Assembly: GCA_965208575.1 (NCBI GenBank)
Contig: CBDBOV010000003.1
Coordinates: 32,001 to 96,000 of the forward strand
DNA length: 64,000 bases
From: Spirochaetia bacterium
Lineage (GTDB): Bacteria > Spirochaetota > Spirochaetia > SZUA-6 > Bin103
Direction of reading: 5' to 3'
Below are positions 4,533-41,146 of this stretch, in pieces. Position 1 is the stretch's first letter; each line of letters begins with the position of its first letter. Both the position numbers and the translations under genes were made by a program. The notes beneath the pieces were generated by a model that saw only the letters and a program-made list of their open reading frames with translations, was not told the DNA's origin and made no database searches.

Positions 4533-4540
4533 CTCCGTCG

Positions 4541-6833: not shown

Positions 6834-6848
6834 ACGACACCTCGTTCG

Positions 6849-10737: not shown

Positions 10738-10859
10738 ACTGCCTCGTACGAGTGTTCTCCGGTGGCGTCGACTTGGTTCGTTTCGAAAGTGGCAGACAGA
10801 GCCGGACGCGTGTCCGTAGTGCCGCACTTGTGATCAGAACTGACTCGCCGATGACAGAG

Positions 10860-13003: not shown

Positions 13004-13118
13004 TGTTGGACAGCGGACGGAATAAGAGTGTTGACTGATAGCATTTCGTCGAGAGCGCAACCGTTGACCCCTGATGCCGAGTCGGTGAACTCGGTGAGAT
13101 CAGGTCGAGCCCAAGTGG

Positions 13119-13146
13119 AGATTACCGAGATATAGAACAATGTCAA
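13119..13146 (-). promoter_or_regulatory. Putative internal sigma70 promoter (TTGACA-16-TAATCT)
   Basis: Perfect -35 hexamer in the intergenic gap upstream of the 13003 gene; weak -10. Confidence 0.35.
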
Positions 13147-13149
13147 GTG

Positions 13150-14292: not shown

Positions 14293-14395
14293 AGTGCCGA
14301 TCCTGCATACGAAGGCGCGCGGCAGCCCAGTAAGCAGCCACTTGTCAGTTCATGCACAAGACATTCCCGCGTTGCGCTGGGAGCCGCAATCCCAT

Positions 14396-15526
14396 TCAGG
14401 TCGCACCGTCCGAAACCGCCCTCATAATCTCGTCCCAAAGGTCTCGGTTCACCTCCTCCGCGTCAAATCGACATACTGCAAGCTGTCGACTTCGCAATCC
14501 CATGGATCTGATCTGCTGATGTTTGCCGATCAGTCGCCTCATCGCGGCTGCAAGCTTTACCGCATCACGAGCAGGCACGATATAACCATTGTGTCGATCG
14601 ATTACGGTCTCACGACAACCCGGCGTATCAGTGGTGATCACCGGTTTGGCCATGGCCATGGCCTCAAGTGTCGACACTGGGGTGCCCTCTCGATACGACG
14701 GCAGCACGAAGACGTCAGCGTCCGCAAGGTACGGACGTACATCCGTGGTGGCGCCCCTATAGCTTACTATGCCTCGATCCTGGTAAGAGCGAAGCGTAGC
14801 AGGATCGATGGCCGACGGGTGATCGTCGAACGGTCCGACCAAGACCGCTTCAGCCGGATGTCCCTCCTGCTTGAGGATAGCCGCGGCTTCGAGATACTCC
14901 AACACTCCCTTGTGTTTCAGCAATCGAGCGATCATCAGGAAGGTGGTCGTGTCCTTGGCCTTGCGGGCGGGCGCCGGTACGAAGTGCCGCGTGTCGACAC
15001 CACTGCCGTAGACCCGGAAGGTGCGGGACCGAGGCAGGATACCCATGCGTACAAACATATCCTGGTCGTCCGGATTCTGAAAGAACACCATTACGTTTTT
15101 ACTTAGAGCGAAGCGCAGTGCGAGATGTAGTACAGGTCTGATAATCGCCATCATCCGACCATCATCGGTAAACAGGAAGCCAAGCCCGGTGATCACGCTG
15201 AACACGCTGCTAGTCCGCGTGGAGCGCGCCGCTATGGAGCTGTAGATTACGACCTTTGGTGTAAAGTTCAAAATGATGTCAGGTCGCAGATTTGCCAGTC
15301 GCCGCCGCAGCCGGCCGATGGCTAGCACTTCCCGAATCGGATTCGCACCGCTTCGGGAAACAGGCCAGTCAACCAACGACACGTTCATACGTCGCAGGTC
15401 GGAAGCCGCGGAGTCGAGCGCACACACGACAGAGATGCTATGTCCGCAGCCCTGCAGAAACCGAATCAGATTAGACCGAAGCGTGCTCACGCCGGACGCG
15501 CTATTCATGATTATAGCGATGTGCAC
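14396..15526 (-). CDS. GT4 glycosyltransferase (PglA/WbpZ-like)
   Basis: FQNPDD, GSGVD, ARLLKHKG and LPSYREGTPVSTLEAMAM motifs. Confidence 0.9.
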   Translation of the reverse strand: MHIAIIMNSASGVSTLRSNLIRFLQGCGHSISVVCALDSAASDLRRMNVSLVDWPVSRSGANPIREVLAIGRLRRRLANLRPDIILNFTPKVVIYSSIAARSTRTSSVFSVITGLGFLFTDDGRMMAIIRPVLHLALRFALSKNVMVFFQNPDDQDMFVRMGILPRSRTFRVYGSGVDTRHFVPAPARKAKDTTTFLMIARLLKHKGVLEYLEAAAILKQEGHPAEAVLVGPFDDHPSAIDPATLRSYQDRGIVSYRGATTDVRPYLADADVFVLPSYREGTPVSTLEAMAMAKPVITTDTPGCRETVIDRHNGYIVPARDAVKLAAAMRRLIGKHQQIRSMGLRSRQLAVCRFDAEEVNRDLWDEIMRAVSDGAT

Positions 15527-15716
15527 GGAAGCAGCTGCTCCTTCAATGTTTGCCGTCTATCCTTGAGATCGAGATCCAATAGAGGTCGCCACTTGCGCAT
15601 ATGAGGAACCGAGGTGGTAATGCGTTGATCGCAGACCACCACTATATCACTACTGCATCGACCTGGCAATAAACAAAGCATTGAGTCTCGCAGGAGACGA
15701 GAACGCGCGGGCTCTA

Positions 15717-17099
15717 CTAGGTCACATTGTCCACCGTGGCAGCCCTGCGACTGTACGACCCGCCGGCCAGATCAGTCCGAATGCGGTTCAGCTTGGCGGT
15801 TTGCTTCGGATCGGTGATCAAGTTCCGCCAATACTCAAAAAAGAATGCAAGAAGTGTCGACAGTCCGAACACGATTACTGTCCCGATCTGGCAGATCCGT
15901 GAACGGCTTGGCCTAAGTTTGGTAGTGGGGATCTCCGCAGGCTCGATGATGGTGAACGCAGGGATGGTCGCCCGTGCGTTGATCGCTTGTGCATGTTCGC
16001 TGCGTAGCCAGTCGTGGATTCTCAAGTGAAAGTCCAGGTCCCGACGTAATTCGCGGTAGCGAGCGAGCATCCCCGGGAACTCACTCTCTGGAATTGTCAC
16101 AGCCGAGAACTCGTTGAAACCTGCGTGAAGCTCATCCACTGCTCGACGTAAGATATCGGTTTCGCTCTCCAGCGTTACGATCGTCGGATCGCTTTCCGGA
16201 AATGTGCCGCGTAGAGAGCGTAACTGCAATTCGTTAGAGAGTACCCGTTCCCTGAAACTCGAAGCTAGATTCGTGGCCAAGGCTCGTTGTTCACCGGGGT
16301 GGATGAACCCGCTTGTTACTTGGAATGCTTGCAGGCGCGTCTGTGCAACTCTTTGAACGTCAGCAACTATCCGCAACCGGTCTTCGATGTGTCGTCTTCT
16401 TTCTTTTTGTGGTTCCTCGAATACTGTGCGGAGACGTTCACCAAGAAGTACAAGAGCACGCTCTAGCACCGCGGCCGAGAGTTGCGCGGATGTTGACTCG
16501 TATGAAATCGTCATTACGGAAGAGCTCTCATCGAATCGACTCCGTAGCGAATCGTTGAGCATTTGACGAGCGCGAGCCCTGTCGTTCACCCCCGAGGGGC
16601 CGATGAAGCCAAAATCGTCGATGATCTGGTCTTGAATCGTACGTCCCGCGAGCAGCTCAGTCGCCAATGCTGCGGTCCTCTTGACGCTCCTCGAAGTCAC
16701 CGTCCTCGCAGAGGGTCTCACTCGAGATCCGAAAGGAGTCCTGTCGGAAGCCAGCGAATATTGGCGCGAATCAGGGTAATCCAATAGCAAGACGCTAGCC
16801 TCGGATCGGTAAATGTTGGGTAGCAGATTCCAAGGGCTCGAGCTGGGAAGATAGAGAGTTAGAAGCGCGTACGAAAAGATCAATACAGCTCCGATGGTGG
16901 TGCTGGCGACGACGAATCGAAATCGTTCGAATGGGACTCGCAGTAGGTCGTACAGCGAAATGGAGTCATCGGGTACCGTATCACCGCCGACCGGCTGACC
17001 GAGTTCATGGACGCGTTGGTCATCCATACGCTGCTGGCTGGTCGTTAGGTGGTCGAACTCACGTTGGAACTCGTCGCGTGAGCGCCGCGTACTCGCCAC
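15717..17099 (-). CDS. Polysaccharide chain-length determinant (Wzz/GumC-like)
   Basis: ISLYDL N-terminus, two TM helices flanking a coiled-coil region, IIEPAEIP..K.RPSR motif. Confidence 0.75.
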   Translation of the reverse strand: MASTRRSRDEFQREFDHLTTSQQRMDDQRVHELGQPVGGDTVPDDSISLYDLLRVPFERFRFVVASTTIGAVLIFSYALLTLYLPSSSPWNLLPNIYRSEASVLLLDYPDSRQYSLASDRTPFGSRVRPSARTVTSRSVKRTAALATELLAGRTIQDQIIDDFGFIGPSGVNDRARARQMLNDSLRSRFDESSSVMTISYESTSAQLSAAVLERALVLLGERLRTVFEEPQKERRRHIEDRLRIVADVQRVAQTRLQAFQVTSGFIHPGEQRALATNLASSFRERVLSNELQLRSLRGTFPESDPTIVTLESETDILRRAVDELHAGFNEFSAVTIPESEFPGMLARYRELRRDLDFHLRIHDWLRSEHAQAINARATIPAFTIIEPAEIPTTKLRPSRSRICQIGTVIVFGLSTLLAFFFEYWRNLITDPKQTAKLNRIRTDLAGGSYSRRAATVDNVT

Positions 17100-17157
17100 C
17101 GTCTCAGCTCCAATCTCCGGTGGTCGCGCCTAAACCGGACGACGTACGTTCGCCCGG

Positions 17158-18276
17158 CTACTTGGTGGGCTGGCTGTCTGGACGAACGGCGACCGGGGGA
17201 CAACTGGCACCCTGGTACTGAGGGTCGCCATCGGGGATATTGCGGAGATACCAGGCAACGAATCGGTCTACGCCCTCGGTAAGCGAGGTGTGGACCTTGT
17301 GTCCGATTTCTTCTTGCAGCGCGGTGGTGTCGGCCCAGGTGCGGGGGACGTCGCCGGGTTGGATGGGGACTTGACGGGTTACGGCTTTCTTGCCCAAGGC
17401 GTTTTCGAGGGCGGCTACCAGGTCGAGGACCGAGACGGGGTCGCCGTTGCCGATGTTGTAGACGCGGGCAGGGGCCGGGGAGACGGCGGACTGGCGGCCG
17501 TCCCAGTCGGCGGCGCCTTGGGGCCGATGGTCGATCACGCGGTGGATGGCTTCGACGACATCGTCGATGTAGGTGAAGTCGCGTTCCATGTCACCGTGGT
17601 TGTAGAGGTCGATCGGGTCGCCGTTCATAATGGCGCGGGTGAAGGAGAACAGCGCCATGTCGGGGCGGCCCCAGGGGCCGTATACGGTGAAGAAGCGCAG
17701 GCCGGTTGACGGGATGCCGAACAGGTGCGAGTAGCTGTGCGCCATCAACTCGTTGGCGCGCTTGGTGGCGGCGTACAGGCTGACGGGATGGTCGGCGGCG
17801 GTGGACTCGGTGAACGGAACGTGGCGGTCGAGGCCGTACACCGAGCTGGACGAGGCGTAGACCAGGTGTCGCACCGGGGTCTTGCGGCACGCTTCGAGCA
17901 CGCTCAGGAAGCCGTGCACGTTGTTCGAGGTGTAGGCGAACGGGTCGCTGAGCGAGTAGCGGACGCCGGCTTGCGCGGCCAGATGGCATACCACGTCGAA
18001 GCGTTGTTCCGCGCACAGGGCCGCAACTGCGTCGGCGTCCGCAAGGTCGAGGCGTCGGAAGCGCAGTCCCGACTCGGCGGTGAAGGTTTCGGGACCGCAT
18101 GTCTCGTTGCAGACGATTCCGAGTTCATGCAAGCGGTCCAGCTTGAGCTGGACGTCGTAGTAGCGGTTGAGGTTGTCGATCCCAAACACGCGGTGGCCCA
18201 ACTCGACCATGCGGCGTGCGAGGTGGAAGCCGATGAAACCGGCAATTCCGGTAATGAGAATCTTCACAGATCGCAT
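17158..18276 (-). CDS. UDP-glucuronate 4-epimerase (start may be GTG at 18267)
   Basis: GIAGFIG, HLAAQAGVRYS, YAATK and RFFTVYGPWGRPDMA motifs. Confidence 0.93.
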   Translation of the reverse strand: MRSVKILITGIAGFIGFHLARRMVELGHRVFGIDNLNRYYDVQLKLDRLHELGIVCNETCGPETFTAESGLRFRRLDLADADAVAALCAEQRFDVVCHLAAQAGVRYSLSDPFAYTSNNVHGFLSVLEACRKTPVRHLVYASSSSVYGLDRHVPFTESTAADHPVSLYAATKRANELMAHSYSHLFGIPSTGLRFFTVYGPWGRPDMALFSFTRAIMNGDPIDLYNHGDMERDFTYIDDVVEAIHRVIDHRPQGAADWDGRQSAVSPAPARVYNIGNGDPVSVLDLVAALENALGKKAVTRQVPIQPGDVPRTWADTTALQEEIGHKVHTSLTEGVDRFVAWYLRNIPDGDPQYQGASCPPVAVRPDSQPTK

Positions 18277-18303: not shown

Positions 18304-18314
18304 CAGGGCAGGGG

Positions 18315-19752
18315 GGGTGCGAACGCCGAAAGCGGTAGCAAATCATTGACTCTGAGGCGGAAAAAAGGTCTACCTACCCCACGACACCACACCATGGGGA
18401 GGTAGACCATGAATACGGAAGGACTTATAACGGCCGCCGAGGGCCTTGTCAAGGAGTTGCAAGGGCGCATCAACGGCGGCCGGATGGATCTCCAGGAGGC
18501 GGAAGCCAAGATCCTTGAGATGGTGAACTGGATCGGCGACGAGATGGTGCAGGAAGTGGTAGCCGGACTCGCGGAGCCGACATCCGCCAACCAGATCACG
18601 GTTGGCGGTGAGGTGGCAGTGTTCGAGCGGGTGCGTAACCTGCGGTTCATCAACCGCTTCGGCGAAGAAGTGGTGCACCCGCGGCGCTGCTACCGGTACC
18701 GGCACCGGAGCGGAGGCGTGGCGCCGCTGGATGTGAAGCTGGGGATCGACGGGTGCTTCGGATTCTCACCGCTGATGACGTACCTGATCTGCATGCTGGG
18801 CGCGGATGAGTCGTATGCCGGTGCAGCGGCAAAACTGGAGGCGATGCTCGGGTTCAAGGTGAGCTCGACGGCGGTGCAGCGCACTACCGAGAAGACGGGA
18901 GAGCGGATACCCGATACCCCCGACGATCTAATTGATGAGCAGCGTCAGCGGCAGCCATGTTCCCTGATGGTGGTCGAGGTAGACGGAACGACGAGCCCGC
19001 AGATCACGGAGCAGGAAGGGATTACTGGTCTTGCCAGCCTCCGGGCGCCGACCTGTTACAAGGAGTGCAACCTGATAGTCATCGAGAAGCACGATGATGG
19101 CAAGGTGATCGACCGCTGGACCGGAGGACGCTATGGACCACGCGGTGAGTTTGCCGGCTACGCCGAGCAGGCTGGACTGCGAATGGGCTTCCTGGACGCT
19201 CCACGAACGCTGTTCCTCGGTGATGGTGCACACCACAACTGGGAACTGCAGCAGACCCACTTCCCCGGCGCGATACCGATCCTGGACTACTACCACGCGG
19301 CTGAGCACCTCGCCGATTACTGCAAGCTGCTGTCTGCTACGCTACGCGATGCCGTCGAGCGCAGCTTGTCCACGATGATGTGGGAAGGCGAGGTGCTGCA
19401 GATGATCCACGAGATGAAGCGTTCACTGTCGAAGGTCACCGATACTGACGAAGCGTGGAAGCAGATCAACTACTTCACGAACAACCAGGACCGTATGGAC
19501 TATGCCCGTTACCGCGATCTCGGGTGGCCGATCGGCAGTGGCTTGGTCGAAGGGCAGTGCAAATTGGTTGTCGGTCGACGCTTCAAGGGCAACGGGATGA
19601 GATGGCGACCGCACGACAACCGCTGCGTGCTACGCACCCGTCTGGCTCTGCTCAACGGCGACCTCAAGCGCTATTTCAGTCCTCCTGACGACTGCGAGAT
19701 CAAAGCGGCCTGATCGTGTCAACCCCTGTTACCGCTTTTGGCATTGGCACCC
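18315..19752 (+). mobile_element. Complete insertion sequence (ISKra4/ISLre2-like DDE element), 1438 bp
   Basis: 26-bp imperfect terminal IRs (GGGTGCGAACGCCGAAAGCGGTAGCA; 22/26 match) and 8-bp target duplication GGCAGGGG at 18307-18314 and 19753-19760. Confidence 0.9.
18409..19713 (+). CDS. DDE transposase (UPF0236/ISKra4-like)
   Basis: EVDGT, LGDGA, ILDYYHA and PIGSGLVEG motifs; GGAGG RBS. Confidence 0.9.
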   Translation: MNTEGLITAAEGLVKELQGRINGGRMDLQEAEAKILEMVNWIGDEMVQEVVAGLAEPTSANQITVGGEVAVFERVRNLRFINRFGEEVVHPRRCYRYRHRSGGVAPLDVKLGIDGCFGFSPLMTYLICMLGADESYAGAAAKLEAMLGFKVSSTAVQRTTEKTGERIPDTPDDLIDEQRQRQPCSLMVVEVDGTTSPQITEQEGITGLASLRAPTCYKECNLIVIEKHDDGKVIDRWTGGRYGPRGEFAGYAEQAGLRMGFLDAPRTLFLGDGAHHNWELQQTHFPGAIPILDYYHAAEHLADYCKLLSATLRDAVERSLSTMMWEGEVLQMIHEMKRSLSKVTDTDEAWKQINYFTNNQDRMDYARYRDLGWPIGSGLVEGQCKLVVGRRFKGNGMRWRPHDNRCVLRTRLALLNGDLKRYFSPPDDCEIKAA

Positions 19753-19824
19753 GGCAGGGGACTCGTCAGTCGCCTACTCGCTCGCTCGTACACGGTGATC
19801 AATCATTTCCTCACTATCGCTTGC

Positions 19825-19953
19825 TCAGATCGACCGGAGTCGCAAAGCGAGGGGCAGCAACCGGCTGGCTCGAAGCCGGCACCGTCGCCGGTCAACTTGT
19901 CGTGCACTGATGAATATGTTGGAGTCGTCCCAATAGATGAAAACCTTGTCCAT
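19825..19953 (-). pseudogene. N-terminal remnant of a NYN (PIN-like) ribonuclease gene
   Basis: Reads MDKVFIYWDDSNIFISARQV then loses resemblance and stops at 42 aa; starts 28 bp after the SBP copy 1 stop. Confidence 0.6.
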
Positions 19954-19980
19954 TTCGAGTTCGGATCACTGCCTCAAGTG

Positions 19981-22028
19981 TCAGCGGTCGAACCAGAGTT
20001 GGTCGGCCCAGTACATCAGGTTGCCTTTCCAGTCGGTGTTGGAGACCGGGAACTCGGTGGGCACGTTGCGCAGGTCGTTGTTGGTGAGCAGGACGGCCGG
20101 GGCTTCGCCGACGGTGCCGATCACGAACACGTTGTTGCCGGTGAATTCGAACATCTGCTGGGCCAGCTCGAACCACTCGTCGGAGCCGAACTCGGACAGC
20201 CTCAACTGGCGCCGCCAGTCCGGAACTGGCGCTGCCAGTCGAAGTAGCGCTTCCATTCCGCGGGCGGCTCGGTGCCCGGCAGCTCGCCGCCGTAGTCGGA
20301 CAGCTTGCGTTCGCCGCGCTCGATCAGCCGGCGCGCCTGCTCCCACTCGTCGTAGCTGCCGGTCATGTTGAAGTCGCCGTGCAGGCCGACGCCGCCGGAG
20401 CCGGGACCGTCGTTGATCCAGTTCCAGAACTCGGTGATGGCGTCGATGCCGCCCGGCTGCAGCATGAACTCGTCGGCGGCGATGTTCTCGCCCCAGGCGG
20501 CGTCGTCCACCAGCCGCGGCACCACGCGCAGGTCGACCTCCGCCCACTGCGCGATCTCCAACTCGAACAGCTTGCTGATGTCCACCGGGCCGCCGGTGCG
20601 CGCGGCGACCTGGATGGTCAGGTTGGAGCCGTCCGGGAAGGTGCGGAAGCCGTCGCGGTCGCGCCCGCTCAGGCCCACTTCGTCGAGCAGGCTGCCCGCC
20701 TGCTCGGGGTCGTGCTCGGCCCACAGCCACTGCCACTCCGGTTTGTAGAAGCGCGCGGTGGAGTGGATGGTGGCCGCGGTGGGCCGGCCAAGCCCCAGGA
20801 AGTACACCTCGTTCAACTCGTCGCGGTCCAGGGCCAGCGACATGGCGCGGCGGAAGCGCACGTCGTTGAACAGCGCGCGGTAGTTCTCCTCCTTGTAGGT
20901 GGGGTTGAACCCGAACGCGCGGCCCACGTCGACGCCGGGAATCAGCGAGATGGTGTAGTTGCCGCGCTCCTCGTTCTCCTTGTAGTCGGGCAGGGAGGCG
21001 AAGTTGGTCATGGTAATCGCCCAGTCCACCTCGCCGGCGATCGCCTTCAGGTTGAACACCTCGGTGTCGGCGCTCGGGGTGGTGAGGATGCCGTCGATGT
21101 AGGGCAGTTGCTGGCCCTCGGGATCGACCTTCCAGAAGTAGGGATTGCGCTCCCAGCGCTCGACCTGGGCGCTGATCTCCTTCGCGATCCACGGCATCAT
21201 GGTGGGAGTCTCCAGGCCGACGCCGCGGATAATGTCCCAGTGCGCCACCAGCGCCTCGGCCCAGGTGTCGTAGCCCTCCTCCTCGGCCAGCTTCTGGGCG
21301 TCCTCGTTGTAGCGGATGTGCCACTTCTTGAGATAGTTGCTCGGCGCGTACTGCACGTAGTTGCCGCCCTTCCAGGTAGTCCAGCCGGGAATGACCACGT
21401 AGTCGATCTGCGACATGTGGAACTGCATGGCGTGGTCGTCGATCTTGGTGATGCTGACCGCGGTGGTGGGCGTCTCGCCGGCGCGCCAGCCGGGGTCGAC
21501 GCGGTCGTCCCACTTCATGTCTTCCATCACGAACATCAGGTCGTCGACGATGAACGGGTCGCCGTTGGACCACCTGGTGCCGGGGCGCAACTCCAGGGTG
21601 ACGGTGAGTCCGTCGTCCGAAACCGCGTAACCGGCGGCGATGTTGGGCACGATCTCCAGCGTCTCCTGGTGCATGGTCAGCAGGTAGATGTCGAGCATCT
21701 GGGTGGTCATTTCGCCGCCGCGCTGGTTCATGAAGCCGACCGCCTCCGATACCCGCAGCGTGCCCCCGTACCTGCCGACGCCGTCGGCGAGCATCTCCTG
21801 CACCACCGGATCGAACGGGATGCGCTCCTCGACCGGCGGCAACTCGCCCGCGGCAACCCGCGCCGCCAGCATCGGCGCCTCGCTGAACCGCCCGCTCATC
21901 GCCGCGCCGGCCCCGGCGGAAGCGCCCTGCTCCGCCTCGCCGGTAGCGAACGCCGCCACCGGCAACGCCAGCAGCAGGACGCCCGCCGCCAGCCACCGCC
22001 ACGTCATTGCAATCTTCGCCACAGACAT
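19981..22028 (-). pseudogene. ABC transporter substrate-binding protein family 5, copy 1, frameshifted (608-aa product)
   Basis: Signal peptide, GELPPVEERIP and GQQLPYID motifs; 20-bp insertion at 20201-20220 moves the last ~70 codons out of frame. Confidence 0.88.
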
Positions 22029-22040
22029 GCTCCGCGCCCA

Positions 22041-22068
22041 ATTGTATCAAACTTGGGCCGACGGTCAA
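22041..22068 (-). promoter_or_regulatory. Promoter of SBP copy 1 (TTGACC-16-TACAAT, extended TGn -10)
   Basis: Both hexamers are conserved in copy 2 despite divergence of the surrounding sequence. Confidence 0.65.
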
Positions 22069-22253
22069 CGGCTACAACGCTGCCACCCGCTACGGCGCCG
22101 CAACCGGAGTAGGGAGCAAGCGCCAGCGCCAACAGCGGTACGCCGACTGCGCCGCCGTTGGTTGACATAACGGAGCAAGTTCGTGTCATTGTATCATGGT
22201 TGGCCGGTCGTCGAGCCGCACCACCAAACAGCGGCCGTCGCGGAGGTATCCTG

Positions 22254-22598
22254 GTGCAGAACGGAACCGCAGTGCCGGTTCAGGACGACGAAGGACTGAA
22301 ACAGATAGCGACAATCGCCCGGGAGGGCCTGGAGCAGTACAAGGTTCGGTTCAAGTTTCAGGTAGTGGTGGACCGCGAGTCGAACGACTACGGTGACAGC
22401 GACGGCGAACCGTACTTGGATATCGCTATCATATGTGATGTCAATAACGTCGACGAATTAGGAGCATCTGATCTGGTTGGTTACTTGATGACGCTGCGAG
22501 ATAAGCTGGTCGAGATCGGCGTGGAGGAGTTTCCGGTGCCGTCATTCTTTTTGAAATCAGAGTGGGAGGGGCTGAACAAGCACAGTGGATCCCCATAA
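22254..22598 (+). CDS. Small acidic protein, putative degenerate nucleotidyltransferase-like (MNT) antitoxin
   Basis: GGAGG RBS before GTG; DSDGEPYLDIAII motif; overlaps the downstream HEPN gene. Confidence 0.55.
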   Translation: MQNGTAVPVQDDEGLKQIATIAREGLEQYKVRFKFQVVVDRESNDYGDSDGEPYLDIAIICDVNNVDELGASDLVGYLMTLRDKLVEIGVEEFPVPSFFLKSEWEGLNKHSGSP

Positions 22599-23043
22599 GC
22601 TCTTGGCGGCGGCACGGGACCTCGTTCACTCGGGTATACAGGGCAACAGAGTAACTGATGAGTACCTTCGGCGATCTGTCAGCACGATCTACTATGCGCT
22701 ATTCCAGTGTTTGTCGAGATCCAATGCCGATGCGTTGGTTGGCGGCCCAAGGGCGCGGCGTGATCAGGAAGAGTGGGATTTGGCTTACCGTGCGATGGAT
22801 CACAGGAAGGCACTCAATCGTTGCCGCAGAAATGACGAGGTGAAGAGGTTCCCAGTAGAGATTCAGAGGTTTGCCAACCTGTTCTGTATAGCACAGGAAC
22901 AGAGGATCAAGGCGGACTATGATCCGCACGCAAGGTTTTCAGGCGGTTCGGTTCTGGTCGCGATAACATTCGCCACCATTATCATACAAAGATTCCGCGC
23001 GCTGCCGCGTCATAGTCGACGGGCGTTCGCGATTTATTGCTGA
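22585..23043 (+). CDS. HEPN domain protein (putative toxin)
   Basis: RRSVSTIYYALF and R.KADYD motifs typical of HEPN. Confidence 0.75.
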   Translation: MDPHKLLAAARDLVHSGIQGNRVTDEYLRRSVSTIYYALFQCLSRSNADALVGGPRARRDQEEWDLAYRAMDHRKALNRCRRNDEVKRFPVEIQRFANLFCIAQEQRIKADYDPHARFSGGSVLVAITFATIIIQRFRALPRHSRRAFAIYC

Positions 23044-23045
23044 TC

Positions 23046-23078
23046 GACAAGAGGCGGGGATAGCGGCGTCCCTCTGTC
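23046..23078. terminator. Hairpin between the convergent HEPN and SBP copy 2 stop codons
   Basis: GACAAGAGG...CCTCTGTC stem with one bulge; no U tract. Confidence 0.35.
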
Positions 23079-25124
23079 AGCGGTCGAACCAGAGTTGGTC
23101 GGCCCAGTACATCAGGTTGCCTTTCCAGTCGGTGTTGGAGACCGGGAACTCGGTGGGCACGTTGCGCAGGTCGTTGTTGGTGAGCAGGACGGCGGGGGCT
23201 TCGCCGACGGTGCCGATCACGAACACGTTGTTGCCGGTGAATTCGAACATCTTCTGAGCCAGCTCGAACCACTCGCCGGAGCCGAACTCGGACAGCCTCA
23301 ACTGGCGCCGCCAGTCCGGAACTGGCGCTGCCAGTCGAAGTAGCGCTTCCATTCCGCGGGCGGCTCGGTGCCCGGCAGCTCGCCGCCGTAGTCGGACAGC
23401 TTGCGTTCGCCGCGCTCGATCAGCCGGCGCGCCTGCTCCCACTCGTCGTAGCTGCCGGTCATGTTGAAGTCGCCGTGCAGGCCGACGCCGCCGGAGCCGG
23501 GACCGTCGTTGATCCAGTTCCAGAACTCGGTGATGGCGTCGATGCCGCCCGGCTGCAGCATGAACTCGTCGGCGGCGATGTTCTCGCCCCAGGCGGCGTC
23601 GTCCACCAGCCGCGGCACCACGCGCAGGTCGACCTCCGCCCACTGCGCGATCTCCAGCTCGAACAGCTTGCTGATGTCCACCGGGCCGCCGGTGCGCGCG
23701 GCGACCTGGATGGTCAGGTTGGAGCCGTCCGGGAAGGTGCGGAAGCCGTCGCGGTCGCGCCCGCTCAGGCCCACTTCGTCGAGCAGGCTGCCCGCCTGTT
23801 CGGGGTCGTGCTCGGCCCACAGCCACTGCCACTCCGGTTTGTAGAAGCGCGCGGTGGAATGGATGGTGGCCGCGGTGGGCCGCCCGAGCCCCAGGAAGTA
23901 CACCTCGTTCAACTCGTCGCGGTCCAGGGCCAGCGACATGGCGCGGCGGAAGCGCACGTCGTTGAACAGCGCGCGGTAGTTCTCCTCCTTGTAGGTGGGG
24001 TTGAACCCGAACGCGCGGCCCACGTCGACGCCGGGAATCAGCGAGATGGTGTAGTTGCCGCGCTCCTCGTTCTCCTTGTAGTCGGGCAGGGAGGCGAAGT
24101 TGGTCATGGTAATCGCCCAGTCCACCTCGCCGGCGATCGCCTTCAGGTTGAACACCTCGGTGTCGGCGCTCGGGGTGGTGAGGATGCCGTCGATGTAGGG
24201 CAGTTGCTGGCCCTCGGGATCGACCTTCCAGAAGTAGGGATTGCGCTCCCAGCGCTCGACCTGGGCGCTGATCTCCTTCGCGATCCACGGCATCATGGTG
24301 GGAGTCTCCAGCCCGACGCCGCGGATAATGTCCCAGTGCGCCACCAGCGCCTCGGCCCAGGTGTCGTAGCCCTCCTCCTCGGCCAGCTTCTGGGCGTCCT
24401 CGTTGTAGCGGATGTGCCACTTCTTGAGATAGTTGCTCGGCGCGTACTGCACGTAGTTGCCGCCCTTCCAGGTGGTCCAGCCGGGAATGACCACGTAGTC
24501 GATCTGCGACATGTGGAACTGCATGGCGTGGTCGTCGATCTTGGTGATGCTGACCGCGGTGGTGGGCGTCTCGCCGGCGCGCCAGCCGGGGTCGACGCGG
24601 TCGTCCCACTTCATGTCTTCCATCACGAACATCAGGTCGTCGACGATGAACGGGTCGCCGTTGGACCACCTGGTGCCGGGGCGCAACTCCAGGGTGACGG
24701 TGAGTCCGTCGTCCGAAACCGCGTAGCCGGCGGCGATGTTGGGCACGATCTCCAGCGTCTCCTGGTGCATGGTCAGCAGGTAGATGTCGAGCATCTGGGT
24801 GGTCATTTCGCCGCCGCGCTGGTTCATGAAGCCGACCGCCTCCGACACCCGCAGCGTGCCGCCGTACCTGCCGACGCCGTCGGCGAGCATGTCCTGCACC
24901 ACCGGGTCGAACGGGATGCGCTCCTCGACCGGCGGCAACTCGCCCGCGGCAACCCGCGCCGCCAGCATCGGCGCCTCGCTGAACCGCCCGCCCATCGCCG
25001 CACCGGCCCCGGCGGAAGCGCCCTGCTCCGCCTCGCCGGTAGCGAACGCCGCCACCGGCAGCGCCAGCAGCAGGACGCCCGCCGCCAGCCATCGCCACCT
25101 CATCCCGATCTTTGCCACAGACAC
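23077..25124 (-). pseudogene. ABC SBP family 5, copy 2, frameshifted (608-aa product)
   Basis: Near-identical to copy 1; the same 20-bp insertion at 23297-23316. Confidence 0.88.
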
Positions 25125-25136
25125 GCTCTGGCCCCG

Positions 25137-25164
25137 ATTGTATCACACTTGGGCCGGCGGTCAA
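25137..25164 (-). promoter_or_regulatory. Promoter of SBP copy 2 (TTGACC-16-TACAAT, extended -10)
   Basis: Same hexamers and spacing as copy 1. Confidence 0.65.
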
Positions 25165-25473
25165 CGGCTGCGACGCTGCCACGCATTACGGCGCCACGGC
25201 CGGGGTAGGGATTGATCCGAGAACTACCGCGTCCACGTTTTCGCGCAGCCAGGCGGGGTGGTCCGCCGGCGATGGCCATCGAGGCTCGGCACCGAGACGC
25301 CCGATCGTTGCCGCAATCGGGTGAAGCATGAACTTGACACTGCCGTTGGCGGACTACGTTCGGTGCCCAGCCCGATGGCGAACGAGGGGCAGCGGAGCAA
25401 CTGGCACGGGCGAGCCGGAGAAGGCGAATCGGCCAGCCGCGCGACAAGTACTTCCAGCGGGGTGTTCTCGAGA

Positions 25474-25986
25474 TCACACACTGCTCTGCGAGCTCAACCG
25501 AATGATCGGGGAATTCGGAAAACTGAGGTTCCACGTTTGCATGTTGAACACGCCAACACGGCGCACGAGAGGTCTCCGCCACTTCTGGCCCTTGGGCCCA
25601 AGACGAGGAAGCTTTCTTCTCAATTCGGTGTGTCTTTGGAGCAACAGGGGTTTCGGAATACCGGTGATTATCACGAAGTAGTCTATCGGCTTGGCGGCCT
25701 TACCGGAGGCCCATTCATAGAGAAATGTATCGCGAAACTTGTACGTGAGCGAGTCGTCAAGAACACCGCTCTTGAACTCGCCCATGAAGCGCTTTAAACT
25801 GGGAACTGATGTCTGTGGGTTGCGGGGGTCCTTCAGTTCGATGAACTGATAGTGCCGCTGCATCTCGACAACGAAGTCGACAGCCTTCATGCAGTGACTG
25901 AGTCCGTGCACAAGAGGGTCGTCGAATCTACGCGCGTTCAGCGGGTTATTGAACGTAATCTGCAGGTCCCCCTCTACCAGGGTCAC
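25474..25986 (-). CDS. Putative PD-(D/E)XK nuclease-fold protein
   Basis: KAVDFVVE...FIELKD motif; translationally coupled (GTGA) to the ATPase. Confidence 0.6.
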   Translation of the reverse strand: MTLVEGDLQITFNNPLNARRFDDPLVHGLSHCMKAVDFVVEMQRHYQFIELKDPRNPQTSVPSLKRFMGEFKSGVLDDSLTYKFRDTFLYEWASGKAAKPIDYFVIITGIPKPLLLQRHTELRRKLPRLGPKGQKWRRPLVRRVGVFNMQTWNLSFPNSPIIRLSSQSSV

Positions 25987-27005
25987 GGCGTCTGTGCTCC
26001 GATTGTCCGCTCGATCTCCCGGTCATAGAGGTCGTCGAATGTAGCGGCAATCGCATTGGGATCGATGTAATCGAACTGGGCGGTCGAGTGACACATGATG
26101 TCACCCGTGTCAACGTCACGGTACAGTGAATGGTACATTATCTGGTCACCCTCCTCAGTGCGTAGGTCAAGTTCCTTGAGAATGACGTAGTCGTGGGTAG
26201 CCAGCAGTACTTGGAGACCGGTGCGCTGCAACTCCAGCAGAACGTCGATAACGGTGCCGAACAGCCCCGGATTCAGGTTCGTTTCCGGTTCGTCCCACAT
26301 TAGCACGGTGCCATCCCGGAGAGTGCCATTCTGGACAAGTATCCAGAGCAAGGCCAGTTTGCGTGTACCTTCTGCGAGGAGCGAGAACTCGATATTCCCG
26401 TGTCTGCTGGAAAGAAAGAACTCTTCATTCTTTACCGTGACGCGACCACCTATTGCCTTATTGAAGGTACGAAGAACACGCTTGTGAACGGCGTCGACAG
26501 ACTCGCGTAGTGGCGGGACATATGCACGATCGATAATATCTGCGTAGGTGTCGTCGAAGTGTATCTCTCGGGAGGCATGGAGGGAACGGAACCCCGGTGC
26601 GTTCGCGAGCAATTCCTTGACGGGTATGTAAACGCTATTGAGAGGATCGGTGCGCCAAATCCGCGCACGTTGTGCCTTAAGTGACGATGTAGAAGTGGTG
26701 TGGTTGGAGAACTTCAGGACCATCCTGTGCGTTCCCCGAAATACTCTTATGGTTGCGCTATTGCTGCCACTCTTTCGAGTGACAAGTCGACCTATGGAAC
26801 TACCGGACGGAAGAAATACTCGCACGAGTTTTTCGGCAAACCGAGAGTCCTGTCGGTATGCTTCGCAAGCAGCGTAGCACACCTTCATGAGATGAGTCTT
26901 GCCAGTACCGTTGGCTCCTAGCACGACGTTGATTCCTGGCGAAAGGTCAAGTGCAAGTTTGGAAAATGCGGTGAAGTTCTCCAGTTCTATTCTCGTTAGT
27001 GGCAC
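25983..27005 (-). CDS. Soluble ABC-family (AAA_15/AAA_21-like) ATPase
   Basis: Walker A GANGTGKT, signature LAEGTRK, Walker B WDEPE, H-loop ATHD; GGAGG RBS before GTG 27005. Confidence 0.88.
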   Translation of the reverse strand: MPLTRIELENFTAFSKLALDLSPGINVVLGANGTGKTHLMKVCYAACEAYRQDSRFAEKLVRVFLPSGSSIGRLVTRKSGSNSATIRVFRGTHRMVLKFSNHTTSTSSLKAQRARIWRTDPLNSVYIPVKELLANAPGFRSLHASREIHFDDTYADIIDRAYVPPLRESVDAVHKRVLRTFNKAIGGRVTVKNEEFFLSSRHGNIEFSLLAEGTRKLALLWILVQNGTLRDGTVLMWDEPETNLNPGLFGTVIDVLLELQRTGLQVLLATHDYVILKELDLRTEEGDQIMYHSLYRDVDTGDIMCHSTAQFDYIDPNAIAATFDDLYDREIERTIGAQTP

Positions 27006-27145
27006 GTAATTGCCTCCACTCGGATGTGCGCTCCCAGCACCAAAGGTCAAGCACCGGTGTACCGGGTTGCCGGGCACCAGGAACGGCGACAACCCTCACA
27101 ACCGGACTGGGAGCGCTCAGACGCTTCCGGGCAGCGCGGGATTCG

Positions 27146-29164
27146 CTAGCGGTCGAACCAGAGTTGGTCGGCCCAGTACATGAGGTTGCCTTTCCAGTCG
27201 GTGTTGGAGACCGGGAACTCGGTGGGCACGTTGCGCAGGTCGTTGTTGGTGAGCAGGACGGCGGGGGCTTCGCCGACGGTGCCGATCACGAACACGTTGT
27301 TGCCGGTGAATTCGAACATCTTCTGGGCCAGCTCGAACCACTCGTCGGAGCCGAACTCGGACAGCCGGAACTGGCGCTGCCAGTCGAAGTAGCGCTTCCA
27401 TTCCGCGGGCGGCTCGGTGCCCGGCAGCTCGCCGCCGTAGTCGGACAGCTTGCGTTCGCCGCGCTCGATCAGCCGGCGCGCCTGCTCCCACTCGTCGTAG
27501 CTGCCGGTCATGTTGAAGTCGCCGTGCAGGCCGACGCCGCCGGAGCCGGGGCCGTCGTTGATCCAGTTCCAGAACTCGGTGATGGCGTCGATGCCGCCCG
27601 GCTGCAGCATGAACTCGTCGGCGGCGATGTTCTCGCCCCAGGCGGCGTCGTCCACCAGCCGCGGCACCACGCGCAGGTCGACCTCCGCCCACTGCGCGAT
27701 CTCCAACTCGAACAGCTTGCTGATGTCCACCGGGCCGCCGGTGCGCGCGGCGACCTGGATGGTCAGGTTGGAGCCGTCCGGGAAGGTGCGGAAGCCGTCG
27801 CGGTCGCGCCCGCTCAGGCCCACTTCGTCGAGCAGGCTGCCCGCCTGTTCGGGGTCGTGCTCGGCCCACAGCCACTGCCACTCCGGTTTGTAGAAGCGCG
27901 CGGTGGAATGGATGGTGGCCGCGGTGGGCCGCCCGAGCCCCAGGAAGTACACCTCGTTCAACTCGTCGCGGTCCAGCGCCAGCGACATGGCGCGGCGGAA
28001 GCGCACGTCGTTGAACAGCGCGCGGTAGTTCTCCTCCTTGTAGGTGGGGTTGAACCCGAACGCGCGGCCCACGTCGACGCCGGGAATCAGCGAGATGGTG
28101 TAGTTGCCGCGCTCCTCGTTCTCCTTGTAGTCGGGCAGGGAGGCGAAGTTGGTCATGGTAATCGCCCAGTCCACCTCGCCGGCGATCGCCTTCAGGTTGA
28201 ACACCTCGGTGTCGGCGCTCGGCGTGGTGAGGATGCCGTCGATGTAGGGCAGTTGCTGGCCCTCGGGATCGACCTTCCAGAAGTAGGGATTGCGCTCCCA
28301 GTGCTCGACCTGGGCGCTGATCTCCTTCGCGATCCACGGCATCATGGTGGGAGTCTCCAGGCCGACGCCGCGGATAATGTCCCAGTGCGCCACCAGCGCC
28401 TCGGCCCAGGTGTCGTAGCCCTCCTCCTCGGCCAGCTTCTGGGCGTCCTCGTTGTAGCGGATGTGCCACTTCTTGAGATAGTTGCTCGGCGCGTACTGCA
28501 CGTAGTTGCCGCCCTTCCAGGTAGTCCAGCCGGGAATGACCACGTAGTCGATCTGCGACATGTGGAACTGCATGGCGTGGTCGTCGATCTTGGTGATGCT
28601 GACCGCGGTGGTGGGCGTCTCGCCGGCGCGCCAGCCGGGGTCGACGCGGTCGTCCCACTTCATGTCTTCCATCACGAACATCAGGTCGTCGACGATGAAC
28701 GGGTCGCCGTTGGACCACCTGGTGCCGGGGCGCAACTCCAGGGTGACGGTGAGTCCGTCGTCCGAAACCGCGTAACCGGCGGCGATGTTGGGCACGATCT
28801 CCAGCGTCTCCTGGTGCATGGTCAGCAGGTAGATGTCGAGCATCTGGGTGGTCATTTCGCCGCCGCGCTGGTTCATGAAGCCGACCGCCTCCGATACCCG
28901 CAGCGTGCCGCCGTACCTGCCGACGCCGTCGGCGAGCATCTCCTGCACCACCGGATCGAACGGGATGCGCTCCTCGACCGGCGGCAACTCGCCCGCGGCA
29001 ACCCGCGCCGCCAGCATCGGCGCCTCGCTGAACCGCCCGCCCATCGCTGCACCGGCCCCGGCGGAAGCGCTCTGCTCCGCCTCGCCGGTCGCGAACACCA
29101 CCACCGGCGCGAGCAGCAGGACACCCGCCGCCAGCCATCGCCACAACATCCCGATCTTGCCCAT
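27146..29164 (-). CDS. ABC SBP family 5, copy 3, intact
   Basis: Uninterrupted ORF ending WADQLWFDR; lacks the 20-bp insertion. Confidence 0.92.
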   Translation of the reverse strand: MGKIGMLWRWLAAGVLLLAPVVVFATGEAEQSASAGAGAAMGGRFSEAPMLAARVAAGELPPVEERIPFDPVVQEMLADGVGRYGGTLRVSEAVGFMNQRGGEMTTQMLDIYLLTMHQETLEIVPNIAAGYAVSDDGLTVTLELRPGTRWSNGDPFIVDDLMFVMEDMKWDDRVDPGWRAGETPTTAVSITKIDDHAMQFHMSQIDYVVIPGWTTWKGGNYVQYAPSNYLKKWHIRYNEDAQKLAEEEGYDTWAEALVAHWDIIRGVGLETPTMMPWIAKEISAQVEHWERNPYFWKVDPEGQQLPYIDGILTTPSADTEVFNLKAIAGEVDWAITMTNFASLPDYKENEERGNYTISLIPGVDVGRAFGFNPTYKEENYRALFNDVRFRRAMSLALDRDELNEVYFLGLGRPTAATIHSTARFYKPEWQWLWAEHDPEQAGSLLDEVGLSGRDRDGFRTFPDGSNLTIQVAARTGGPVDISKLFELEIAQWAEVDLRVVPRLVDDAAWGENIAADEFMLQPGGIDAITEFWNWINDGPGSGGVGLHGDFNMTGSYDEWEQARRLIERGERKLSDYGGELPGTEPPAEWKRYFDWQRQFRLSEFGSDEWFELAQKMFEFTGNNVFVIGTVGEAPAVLLTNNDLRNVPTEFPVSNTDWKGNLMYWADQLWFDR

Positions 29165-29182
29165 GTCCACCCTCAAGATGAC

Positions 29183-29210
29183 ATCATAACGGACCACCCG
29201 CGCCCGTCAA
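29183..29210 (-). promoter_or_regulatory. Promoter of SBP copy 3 (TTGACG-16-TATGAT)
   Basis: Consensus-like hexamers; surrounding sequence differs from copies 1 and 2. Confidence 0.55.
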
Positions 29211-29253: not shown

Positions 29254-29904
29254 TCAGGAGCCGCTGGCCAGGTAGGGGGAGGACTCGTCGACGAACGCGC
29301 GCCACAGTTGGTACTTGGGGTTCTGCAGGCGCTCGGCCACGGTCGGGTTGGTGCGCGGCTTGGTGGGCTTGCGGCGCAGGCGCATGTTGGCGCCCTGCGG
29401 GGTACGGCCGCCCTTGCGGGAGTTGCACGGCACACAGGCGCTGACCAGGTTGTCCCAGGTGTCGCGGCCGCCCTGCGAACGCGGCACGATGTGATCCACG
29501 GTAAGGTCGCGGGTGGTGAACCGCTTGCCGCAGTAGTGGCAGCGGAACAGGTCGCGGGCGTGGATGTTGCGCCGCGTCAGGCGCACCTCGCGCTGCGGGC
29601 GCCCGGTGTAGTGCAGCAGGCGGATCACGCGCGGCACGGCAATCGCCAGGCGCGGCGTGTGCACCCAGTCGGGCGGTTCGTGGCCGTTGCCGTGCCGCGG
29701 CGGATTGTTGGAACGCACCAGGTCCGACCACAGCATCCACGCCGCCAGGTCGTAGGTCCGGAACTGCCCGTCGTCCGTGGTAACGACTTCGGCCGCCTCC
29801 CGGATGAGCAGAATGAACGCACGGCGGGCGTTGGTGATGCGGATCGCGGTGTATCCGCTGTTCAGGACCAGCACGTTGGATTCGAGAATTGCCAGCTTGC
29901 CCAC
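29254..29904 (-). CDS. HNH endonuclease (McrA-like)
   Basis: VLVLNSGY N-terminus, CHYCG, TVDHIVPRSQGG, NLVSACVPCN. Confidence 0.92.
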   Translation of the reverse strand: MGKLAILESNVLVLNSGYTAIRITNARRAFILLIREAAEVVTTDDGQFRTYDLAAWMLWSDLVRSNNPPRHGNGHEPPDWVHTPRLAIAVPRVIRLLHYTGRPQREVRLTRRNIHARDLFRCHYCGKRFTTRDLTVDHIVPRSQGGRDTWDNLVSACVPCNSRKGGRTPQGANMRLRRKPTKPRTNPTVAERLQNPKYQLWRAFVDESSPYLASGS

Positions 29905-40871: not shown

Positions 40872-40874
40872 GAA

Positions 40875-41080
40875 ACCTCCGCTACGACTGAGTGGTGCGG
40901 CCAAGGCGTGTGTAGCAGGTATTCTCCTGAACGGGATGATCGCCACCCGGCCGCGCCGGCTGACAACCTCACCAATGACTACGCCACCCGCCCCGGGGCC
41001 AAGCTCTTGAACGGGTTCGCAGAACGTAACGCCAGTGACGCGCCGGCCTACTTTCGCGCTCCACCCAGAACTCTGCCCAC
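40875..41080 (-). ncRNA. Candidate IS110 bridge RNA
   Basis: Two related ~80-nt modules, one carrying TCAAGAGC (target match) and the next TCAGGAG (donor match); TATAGT -10 at 41081-41086. Confidence 0.65.
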
Positions 41081-41146
41081 ACTATAGCTCACCCTTGTTT
41101 CTTTCATGACTGCGCCGGCCCAGGGGCCGGTGGGATAGCTCTTGAG

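Follow-up and report, generated by a model that had tools for sequence, protein, structure and literature searches.

The window considered here is a 64,000-nucleotide (64-kb) stretch of DNA from a Spirochaetia bacterium (assembly GCA_965208575.1, contig CBDBOV010000003.1, positions 32,001 to 96,000). It contains an array of three direct repeats of an orphan gene for a family-5 solute-binding protein (SBP), each followed by a different block of foreign DNA, or cargo. The cargo comprises a predicted HEC-02 defence pair beyond copy 3, a HEPN-like gene with a small partner beyond copy 2, and a NYN gene with internal deletions beyond copy 1; two related loci at the same chromosomal position, L006 and L001, hold different content. 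The sequences show the anatomy of the array, its variation between genomes, the shared junctions, and signatures of concerted evolution; we regard the SBP copies as old duplicates. Moreover, the repeats very probably are the sequences on which the locus recombines, and this probably reshuffles its cargo. This leads to a model, in our judgement a fairly probable one, of a core-gene-flanked defence and toxin-antitoxin (TA) hotspot, in which the orphan SBP gene has been iterated in tandem and RecA-type recombination between the repeats reshapes the array. From sequence we infer the recombination events, the first entry of the cargo, and any selective value of the arrangement. Identity and layout were analysed in the 64-kb window; the comparative part covers three genomes (window, L001, and L006).

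Self-BLAST delimits three direct SBP_bac_5 repeats on the minus strand: copy 1 (19979-22115), copy 2 (23075-25211), and copy 3 (27148-29158). Copies 1 and 2 align without gaps over 2137 nt and differ at 41 positions (98.1% identity); copy 3 is 97.7% identical to copy 2 and 97.5% to copy 1 (2034 nt and two gaps in each case). A separate repeat search agrees, giving spacings of 3096 and about 4049-4069 nt. All three copies match Pfam SBP_bac_5 (E 1e-43 to 2e-43), and pairwise identity in the gene body (gene positions 131-1807) is 99.2-99.4%. A preliminary description of this DNA had noted three ~99%-identical SBP genes, with identity ending at or within a few bp of each stop codon. The identity holds, as does its sharp 3' edge: similarity ends at TGA 19981 (copy 1), TGA 23077 (copy 2), and TAG 27146 (copy 3), and over the next 150 nt the copies are only 28-43% identical, that is, unrelated. 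The three are not all intact genes. Only copy 3 encodes a full-length SBP_bac_5 protein, complete relative to 14 relatives and including the conserved ...WFDR end. Copies 1 and 2 contain the same 20-nt insertion, which shifts the reading frame, introduces a TGA after 608 codons, and removes the conserved last ~75 residues. This C-terminal segment is conserved in 12 of 14 aligned relatives, the remaining two being themselves frameshifted. Judged by their reading frames, copies 1 and 2 are pseudogenes.

The 20-nt insertion duplicates, in tandem but imperfectly, a segment able to form a hairpin. It lies just after the codons for ...WQRQFR, and the duplicated stretch is short and palindromic. Different indels occur at this same spot in L001 (near 12990) and in the database proteins P0031, P0032, P0034, P0035, P0037, and P0038; in these relatives reading goes on as QFRTG..., but frame and length vary. 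Spare SBP copies, it seems, are inactivated time and again at a hairpin-driven indel hotspot.

As had been proposed, the SBP gene is an orphan: no Opp/Dpp-type permease or ATPase was found among the open reading frames (ORFs) scanned in the window, nor in L006. The sole ABC importer found in the window lies at 52-56 kb, together with an SBP_bac_3 protein. The codon bias of the SBP genes is extreme but native (G+C at third codon positions, GC3, 0.95). Only three sigma-70-like sites are predicted between 18300 and 30000, each located directly upstream of one SBP copy and matching 10 of 12 consensus positions; shuffled sequences gave a mean of 1.7 sites over this whole region. The notion that each copy has its own promoter thus stands as a prediction. 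The promoter regions are not near-identical: those of copies 1 and 2 (type A) are 81.8% identical, and that of copy 3 (type B) is ~50% identical to either.

Indeed, the 5' edge of the repeats is graded. Between copies 1 and 2, identity is 81.8% from -87 to 0, 93.1% from 1 to 130, 99.2% from 131 to 1807, and 98.2% after the insertion. Between copy 3 and either of the others, the values for the first three segments are ~50%, 84-88%, and 99.3-99.4%. Insertion of the Campbell type, to which the preliminary description appealed, should if recent leave copies that are equally similar throughout and sharply bounded at either end, and so does not match the stepwise 5' pattern (81.8, 93.1, and 99.2%).

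The array also contains old junctions. That between the copy 2 stop codon and the HEPN-like cargo aligns through to L001 (92.4% in the SBP part, 76.8% in the HEPN 3' part), and that between the copy 1 stop codon and the NYN remnant aligns with a junction in L001 between a full SBP gene and a NYN gene. Because these two junctions are common to the window and L001, a minimum of two SBP copies with separate neighbours must have been in place before the two lineages split. The SBP-NYN and SBP-HEPN units occur in opposite order in the window and L001. This fits a view in which modules are moved by recombination between SBP repeats. Either unequal crossing-over followed by loss or loop-out and re-entry of circles can yield such an order, and the data do not separate these routes.

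Full-length SBP copies share 98.4-98.7% identity inside the window, compared with 92.7-93.5% when they are set against those of L001 and L006; the flanking core DNA is 88.5-91% identical to L006. Moreover, the HEPN-linked copy in L001 is 95.6% identical to the full L001 copy (816 nt) versus 90.1-91.2% to the window copies. Even with a junction in common, then, copies are more like those of their own genome, which is what concerted evolution predicts. Since the 5' identity decays stepwise, and since the array predates the split from L001, gene conversion better explains the near-identity of the copies.

Differences among the gene bodies point the same way. At 17 of 21 variable sites the change is synonymous, compared with an expected 22.7% (binomial p 2.6e-8). 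This includes six of the seven sites unique to pseudogene copy 1, and seven of the nine unique to copy 2. Copy-specific variants are clustered along the gene (10 runs versus 14.6 expected, P 0.024). This suggests that variation was exchanged with functional alleles, being either imported from them or fixed there, rather than accumulated in dead genes.

Several considerations weigh against a model of recombining repeats. No recombination event has been observed, and all are inferred from the three genomes. The maximum-likelihood tree of the 220-nt 3' ends supports only the split from a more distant paralogue and leaves the L001 copies unresolved, with the window copies and L006 grouping at 81/88; because this tree is poorly resolved, within-genome clustering rests on the pairwise identities. 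For the synonymous excess, the null model assumed uniform mutation, and a strong GC3 bias could inflate the result. Likewise, the 5' gradient could in part reflect fast evolution of promoter DNA after a more recent duplication. The cargo is not always a tidy unit with its SBP: the HEPN-like pair of L006 is embedded in a degenerate SBP copy rather than placed after its stop codon. Finally, the model does not account for the first arrival of cargo without a mobility gene between the copies.

All of the cargo is compositionally foreign: its G+C content is 0.52-0.54 versus 0.64-0.70 in the SBP genes, and its GC3 is 0.60-0.68 versus 0.95. Given a G+C of ~53% against 64-70%, the cargo was acquired horizontally. 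The preliminary description had identified cargo 3 as an ABC-ATPase plus PD-(D/E)XK pair, which is borne out by strong matches to both PADLOC models of HEC-02. The HEC-02A match spans residues 32-365 of the long ORF and covers 333 of 337 model positions; the protein also matches Pfam AAA_21 (E 5e-19), its translation has the Walker A sequence GANGTGKT and the Walker B sequence LMWDEP, and its GC3 is 0.60. The HEC-02B match covers 169 of 171 model positions. This gene overlaps that for the HEC-02A-like protein by 4 nt, and its product contains a D..VE...IELK (ExK) motif and has no Pfam match. By these matches, cargo 3 is a HEC-02 defence pair. In the part of the published account drawn on here, a HEC-02 homologue (ABC ATPase plus NERD nuclease) reduced plaquing, and both genes were required (bioRxiv 10.1101/2024.01.29.577857). 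According to the same account, that homologue lies inside an Hma system in another host, whereas the window pair, which is predicted from sequence, lies between two SBP copies. Cargo 3 DNA had no match in plasmid or phage collections, and no vehicle was found.

Cargo 2 had been described as an MNT-like (minimal nucleotidyltransferase) plus HEPN pair. The second half of this label is probable. The 152-residue protein belongs to a large, unnamed family (1111 cluster representatives at E<=0.001), and a profile of 46 members matches two structures in the PDB: 2hsb (the UPF0332/HEPN protein AF0298) and 9xbd (HEPN), both with E ~3e-5. Pfam HEPN matches 11 of the 46 members weakly (best E 0.0012) and does not match the window protein. 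Its AlphaFold2 model (pLDDT 96) has 2hsb as the top Foldseek match, with E only 0.054. Conserved residues R69 and H73 have the spacing Rx3H (the HEPN motif being Rx4-6H), and R107..ADY is conserved too. A protein atlas, in which the matching clusters are unnamed, provided a weak HEPN lead, namely one cluster in which 14% of members have PF05168. We therefore call the protein a divergent member of the HEPN superfamily, an assignment made from profile and predicted fold.

The MNT-like label for the small partner could not be confirmed. Nine relatives are known, mostly of 111-116 residues. The partner has no Pfam, PADLOC, or NCBIfam match, and the protein atlas gave nothing usable. Foldseek matches for its AlphaFold2 model (pLDDT 79) are split between OsmC-like folds (E 4e-3) and the minimal nucleotidyltransferase 1ylq (E 6e-3; TM 0.44/0.51). 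No Polbeta or NTP_transf match was found up to E 10, and the conserved columns contain no GS motif. Together, the HEPN-like gene and its ~114-residue partner form a candidate defence or TA module, marked as such by their position in the locus.

Cargo 1 is a NYN remnant, as had been proposed: both ends of an intact NYN gene in L001 are matched. This gene (L001 12060-12674) encodes a 204-residue protein that matches Pfam PF01936 (E 7.4e-8, 33.5 bits versus a cut-off of 24.2). The N-terminal 42-residue ORF of the remnant is 54% identical to the start of this protein, and pieces of remnant DNA match L001 12030-12127, 12411-12433 (23 nt, in the middle), and 12616-12674 at 85-96% identity.

An apparently complete ISKra4-family insertion sequence (IS) adjoins the copy 1 side of the array, between the NYN remnant and the epimerase gene. 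Its transposase matches NCBIfam transpos_ISKra4 (E 1.6e-58; 198.8 bits, slightly below the 205-bit cut-off). The element has 26-nt inverted repeats (18315-18340 and 19727-19752, 85% complementary) and an intact 8-bp target duplication, GGCAGGGG, at 18307-18314 and 19753-19760. The IS was considered as the cause of the NYN truncation and was ruled out, because its target duplication is intact, the element lies outside the remnant, and the gaps relative to L001 are internal.

Table. Coordinates and supporting evidence for features of the SBP array and its flanks, in window numbering.
Feature	Position	Strand	Evidence and remarks
NAD-dependent epimerase/dehydratase gene, flank	17158..18276	-	Pfam Epimerase, E 3e-59
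ISKra4-family IS	18315..19752	+	1438 bp, apparently complete; transposase 18409-19713
NYN gene remnant (cargo 1)	19811..19953	-	Internal deletions; matches intact L001 NYN gene
SBP copy 1 repeat unit	19979..22115	-	Type A promoter-like site 22041-22068; truncated 608-residue ORF 20202-22028; old stop 19981
20-nt frameshifting insertion, copy 1	~20202-20221	-	Identical to that of copy 2
Small partner protein (cargo 2)	22254..22598	+	~114 residues; overlaps HEPN-like gene by 14 nt
Divergent HEPN-superfamily protein (cargo 2), predicted	22585..23043	+	152 residues; family profile matches HEPN structures; antisense to SBP genes
SBP copy 2 repeat unit	23075..25211	-	Type A promoter-like site 25137-25164; truncated 608-residue ORF 23298-25124; out-of-frame 3' part to old stop 23077
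20-nt frameshifting insertion, copy 2	23298..23317	-	Alignment of copies; placement uncertain by a few nt (tandem duplication)
Spacer between cargo 3 and copy 2 repeat	25212..25473	.	No family match for overlapping ORFs; no match to fetched loci
HEC-02B-like NERD/PD-(D/E)xK nuclease (cargo 3)	25474..25986	-	PADLOC PDLC04229, E 8.5e-55
HEC-02A-like ABC ATPase (cargo 3)	25983..27005	-	PADLOC PDLC04213, E 1.4e-123; likely start GTG 27005 after GGAGG
SBP copy 3, intact	27146..29164	-	672 residues from ATG 29164; first in-frame GTG 29197; SBP_bac_5, E 2e-43
Copy 3 promoter-like site, type B	29183..29210	-	TTGACG, 16 nt, TATGAT
HNH endonuclease gene, core flank	29254..29904	-	Pfam HNH, E 3.9e-17; native composition

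Close relatives of the SBP protein were found only in uncultured Spirochaetia, with database clusters that include two of 211 and 169 member sequences. A genome scan with the SBP returned 65 matching stretches, ten of which encode relatives, in seven loci (L001-L007). The SBP type of the window is present in two of the seven, L001 and L006; both are at the syntenic locus, both are multi-copy or fragmented, and their cargo differs. This comparison of the locus across genomes, with its differing copy number and cargo, bears out the earlier proposal of a recurring array with cargo turnover. The other five loci (L002-L005 and L007) have a paralogue that is 79% identical in protein and has a conserved FG-GAP/ASPIC neighbour. 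This paralogue serves as a control for iteration: it is single-copy in all four full loci. Its 3' neighbour is a Polbeta nucleotidyltransferase gene in two of these four (L004 12137-12520 and L005 12098-12490), which matches the PADLOC candidate PDC-S09 (E 2e-9). Elsewhere, the 3' neighbour is an SMC-like gene on the other strand (L002) or an unrelated ORF (L003). In L005, a DppB-like permease gene lies 2 kb downstream of the paralogue.

L006 contains one full SBP gene, a 150-nt SBP fragment, and a 27-nt remnant of an SBP 3' end. Its single full gene is preceded by a type B promoter, like copy 3 of the window, and is the last copy in the array, whereas the intact copy in the window is the first. 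Between the HNH gene and promoter B are 2.4 kb that the window lacks, which hold the two SBP remnants and the cargo. The latter comprises a PRTase-like gene and an antisense HEPN-like pair, with 40% and 29% protein identity to the window pair. The 27-nt remnant includes its TGA and is followed, after ~30 nt, by the -35 element that belongs to the full copy, forming a head-to-tail junction free of cargo.

L001 contains one full SBP gene and at least six other SBP-derived stretches of 77-97% identity. Among its cargo are the intact NYN gene, a truncated HEPN-like gene, two genes for ADP-ribosylglycohydrolases, and one for a TmtA-like helicase that PADLOC matches in its N-terminal part only (E 3.8e-53). 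The two ADP-ribosylglycohydrolase genes are on a duplicated 1.6-kb segment (2182-3821 and 16071-17808, 93-96% identical). The second copy of this segment lies directly 5' of an SBP copy, and the first is followed by the antisense TmtA-like gene and then by SBP 3' fragments.

Database relatives of the SBP, of which the closest are P0001 (98%) and P0002 (90%), include many frameshifted or internally deleted forms. Two proteins, P0034 and P0035, start with a 43-residue stretch resembling HEC-02B residues 33-75 (47% identity), and continue with an SBP signal peptide and an internally deleted SBP. It follows from these fusions that a divergent, decayed HEC-02-like cassette exists upstream of an SBP copy in other relatives.

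The array sits at an exact boundary in the window, whose overall G+C content is 64.5%. From 1 to ~17000 is an island of 50-60% G+C, with glycosyltransferase, flippase, and sugar-nucleotide genes; beyond 29.2 kb is core DNA of ~70% G+C, with genes for an M29 peptidase, an AI-2E transporter, and alanyl-tRNA synthetase. Conserved syntenic core genes, in comparison with L006, are present on both sides of the array. On the high-GC side, where identity to L006 is 88.5-91%, the protein encoded by the HNH gene is 91% identical to its L006 counterpart, and synteny continues to the M29 peptidase and alanyl-tRNA synthetase genes. Because of its native composition and this 91% identity, the HNH gene looks like core DNA rather than cargo. 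The HNH region of this 216-residue protein (whose L006 counterpart is at 6911-7600) also scores against the NCBIfam IscB and Cas9d models (E ~1e-14, far under the cut-offs) and against PADLOC PtuB models.

On the other side, the epimerase gene comes first among those of the polysaccharide island (1-17 kb). At the corresponding array ends, nucleotide identity is 87% to L006 and 83% to L001. The synteny comparison with L001 covers this epimerase side, the left flank being outside the 23-kb L001 locus that was fetched. The island itself (1-17100, compared with L006 12173-21500) is largely different in gene content, and only the array-adjacent epimerase gene aligns well; the island genes include those for glycosyltransferases, a flippase, a UDP-glucose dehydrogenase, and epimerases. 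Since the island content differs in L006, the SBP array borders a second variable locus.

Further from the array, core-like DNA ~10 kb away contains an IS110-family transposase gene (39486-41081; DEDD_Tnp_IS110 and Transposase_20). Two neighbouring ABC exporter genes (44649-48553), each with fused transmembrane and ATPase domains, share a ~610-nt stretch of 68% identity; the pair has the usual look of a heterodimeric exporter and is unconnected with the SBP array. ARAGORN reports a 91-nt tRNA-Cys at 59972-60062, inside the 3' part of an ORF for a 1396-residue SNF2-family helicase. It probably is a false positive, because Rfam finds no tRNA in the whole window at the gathering score.

How might such an array be built and remodelled? 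In the model of recombining repeats, the hotspot lies between the HNH endonuclease and M29 peptidase genes on one side and the sugar epimerase gene with its polysaccharide island on the other. Gene conversion would keep the SBP bodies within a genome ~99% identical, while the unconstrained flanks drift or are replaced. Conversion tracts would fade where 5' homology has decayed, and halt at the stop codon, beyond which the copies have no homology; hence the sharp edge at the stop codons and the graded edge at the 5' end. Unequal crossing-over would duplicate or delete units consisting of an SBP gene and its downstream cargo, and duplication followed by differential loss would permute their order. 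Such recombination would also leave behind internally deleted and truncated SBP relics. Presumably, the repeats also offer flanking homology, by which resident cargo is exchanged for divergent alleles or for new cassettes from related genomes. Replacement of alleles through homologous flanks is suggested by the low protein identity of the cargo (29-54%) relative to that of the SBP DNA (~93%). One functional SBP copy would suffice, leaving the others to decay, here through a 20-nt duplication at the hairpin-prone indel hotspot.

The preliminary description went further, envisaging an integrase-free, integron-like device. In a strong form of this idea, circles containing an SBP gene and its cargo would loop out, move between cells, and re-enter by Campbell-type crossover; the SBP gene would be the anchor, its promoter would drive the cargo, and TA functions would stabilise the array. 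Some of what such a device predicts is indeed found. SBP-to-cargo junctions are conserved and in different order in the window and L001, and the cargo differs in all three genomes. Two of the three window cargos (HEC-02 and the NYN remnant) are co-oriented with the upstream SBP promoter and start 25-140 nt past the SBP stop codon, with no promoter- or terminator-like site between, and the pseudogene copies retain promoter-like sites at 10 of 12 positions. An integrase and att-like sites were likewise not found. No integrase or recombinase family was matched by the 34 ORFs scanned (of 94 with at least 60 codons in 15-34 kb), nor by 27 scanned elsewhere, and the only mobility genes found in the window are the ISKra4-family and IS110-family transposases. 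The six cargo junctions share no motif beyond chance (four pairs with a common 8-mer, versus 2.8 in shuffles), and Rfam has no match in 17-31 kb or in the rest of the window, the presence of an attC model in Rfam not having been checked. Recent insertion of circles is nevertheless hard to reconcile with the gradient of 5' identity and with junctions this old, and permutation is possible by unequal crossing-over and loss, without circles. No vehicle is apparent, cargo 3 DNA being unmatched in the plasmid and phage collections. Nor are the cassettes tidy: they have irregular boundaries, one of them (the HEPN-like pair) runs antisense, and the copy-to-copy junction in L006 holds no cargo. Anchors decay freely into fragments; with two of three being pseudogenes and many decayed fragments in relatives, the array looks like a by-product rather than a purpose-made device. 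We consider the circle-borne device doubtful, and see no support for a dedicated system of the integron type. A proposal that we would entertain a little more readily, if only tentatively, is that the SBP copies are substrates of an integrase-free cassette array. Homologous recombination would capture units from related genomes, and excise, duplicate, and reorder them; promoters of the pseudogene copies would transcribe co-oriented cargo, and the relics would be scars of hotspot building.

The remaining explanations differ in what they make of the repeats themselves. The SBP gene and its promoter may have been tandemly amplified first (for example, for dosage), with selfish or defence cassettes later entering dispensable junctions and spare copies, each on its own, by illegitimate recombination to which SBP homology is irrelevant. 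The cargo-free junction in L006, the L006 HEPN-like pair inside a decayed copy, the IS inserted beside copy 1, and the pseudogene state of the spare copies are all compatible with this order of events. Both inter-copy cargos of the window, however, fill the exact interval from stop codon to promoter, for which independent hits are less parsimonious; the SBP-to-HEPN and SBP-to-NYN junctions were inherited as units and permuted; and the cargo diverges far more (HEPN-like 40-52% and HEC-02B-like 47% in protein) than does the SBP DNA (~93% identical), as fits allele replacement. Amplification before insertion therefore strikes us as improbable. Misassembly, in which strain variants with one SBP gene and a different neighbour each were chained into a false tandem array, is unlikely, and decidedly more so. 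Near-identical 2-kb repeats do assemble poorly, and the closest relatives are metagenome-assembled genomes. Chaining, however, would not create the cargo-to-promoter junctions (25211/25212 and 22115/22116), which join cargo to two promoter alleles that are 81.8% identical; each copy has private substitutions; and two independently assembled chromosomes have the SBP-cargo-SBP arrangement at the same locus. Least credible is surface-protein variation, with the frameshifted copies as silent donor cassettes for conversion into the expressed SBP gene, a scheme that other bacteria use for variable surface proteins. One intact and two silent copies with signatures of gene conversion, and an intact copy whose position differs (first in the window, last in L006), are what antigenic variation might produce. 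Against this, the bodies have only 21 differences, 17 of them synonymous, and thus almost no protein diversity to donate; promoters are kept on the silent copies; and no hypervariable segments are seen. Because the copies hold almost no protein differences, this reading was rejected.

How does the array compare with known systems? The open-access literature searched yielded no report of defence cassettes separated by repeats of a host gene. The orphan toxin-immunity arrays downstream of rhs and cdiA genes are tandem arrays of conserved fragments, each with a different toxin/immunity module, and the modules are swapped by homologous recombination between the repeats. In those arrays, an in-frame fusion links the conserved part to a variable toxin domain; in the window, by contrast, every SBP copy has a stop codon of its own, and the defence or TA genes that make up the cargo are separate from it and unrelated. 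The pneumococcal capsule locus is bordered by dexB and the orphan SBP5 gene aliA, and contains aliB-like SBP genes in non-encapsulated strains; exchange is by homologous recombination in the flanks, in an organism that is naturally competent. Like aliA, the window SBP5 gene is an orphan that borders a swappable polysaccharide locus, with paralogous copies in tandem. Unlike the window, the pneumococcal locus is not known to have defence cassettes between its SBP copies.

Should the same picture emerge throughout the clade, it would mean that homologous recombination on a repeated host gene can give integron-like modularity without a dedicated recombinase. If it fails, the locus is still a clean natural case of concerted evolution among tandem paralogues, two of them pseudogenes. 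Sedentary chromosomal integrons are described, in the part of the source used here, as stores of defence and TA cassettes (PMC12614218). The window array resembles them in having small, defence- or TA-rich cassettes, a repeated element between these, and shuffling. It differs in that scans of the window found no IntI, attI, or attC; the repeat is a 2-kb gene with a promoter, where integrons have hairpin sites of 60-120 nt; cassette orientation varies; and recombination would be general rather than site-specific.

In Streptococcus suis, one chromosomal locus holds different defence elements in different lineages and is linked to mobile elements and competence; an iterated anchor gene, such as the window locus has, is not among the features described in the relevant part of that report (PMC5398294). 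Elevated recombination at core genes that flank accessory regions has been documented, according to the section consulted (PMC11879095). The closest counterparts are core defence hotspots of the cDHS1 type in Pseudomonas aeruginosa. There, in the portion of the study cited here, defence content varies between core genes, transfer by homologous recombination at the flanks is proposed, and how hotspots without mobile elements are built is stated to be an open question (PMC10250203). The assembly scars in the Spirochaetia array (copies of the flanking gene that are complete, frameshifted, truncated, or missing internal parts) let individual recombination events be reconstructed across genomes. 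As in cDHS1, so far as that portion describes it, the window locus has variable, low-GC defence content that lies between syntenic core genes and is part of no recognisable mobile element. It is far smaller, with three cargo blocks in ~9 kb. Moreover, its flanking gene is repeated between the cassettes, as full copy, pseudogene, or fragment. The locus thus is of a known kind, the core-gene-flanked defence hotspot; its new feature is a flanking gene that is iterated between the cassettes and evolves in concert.

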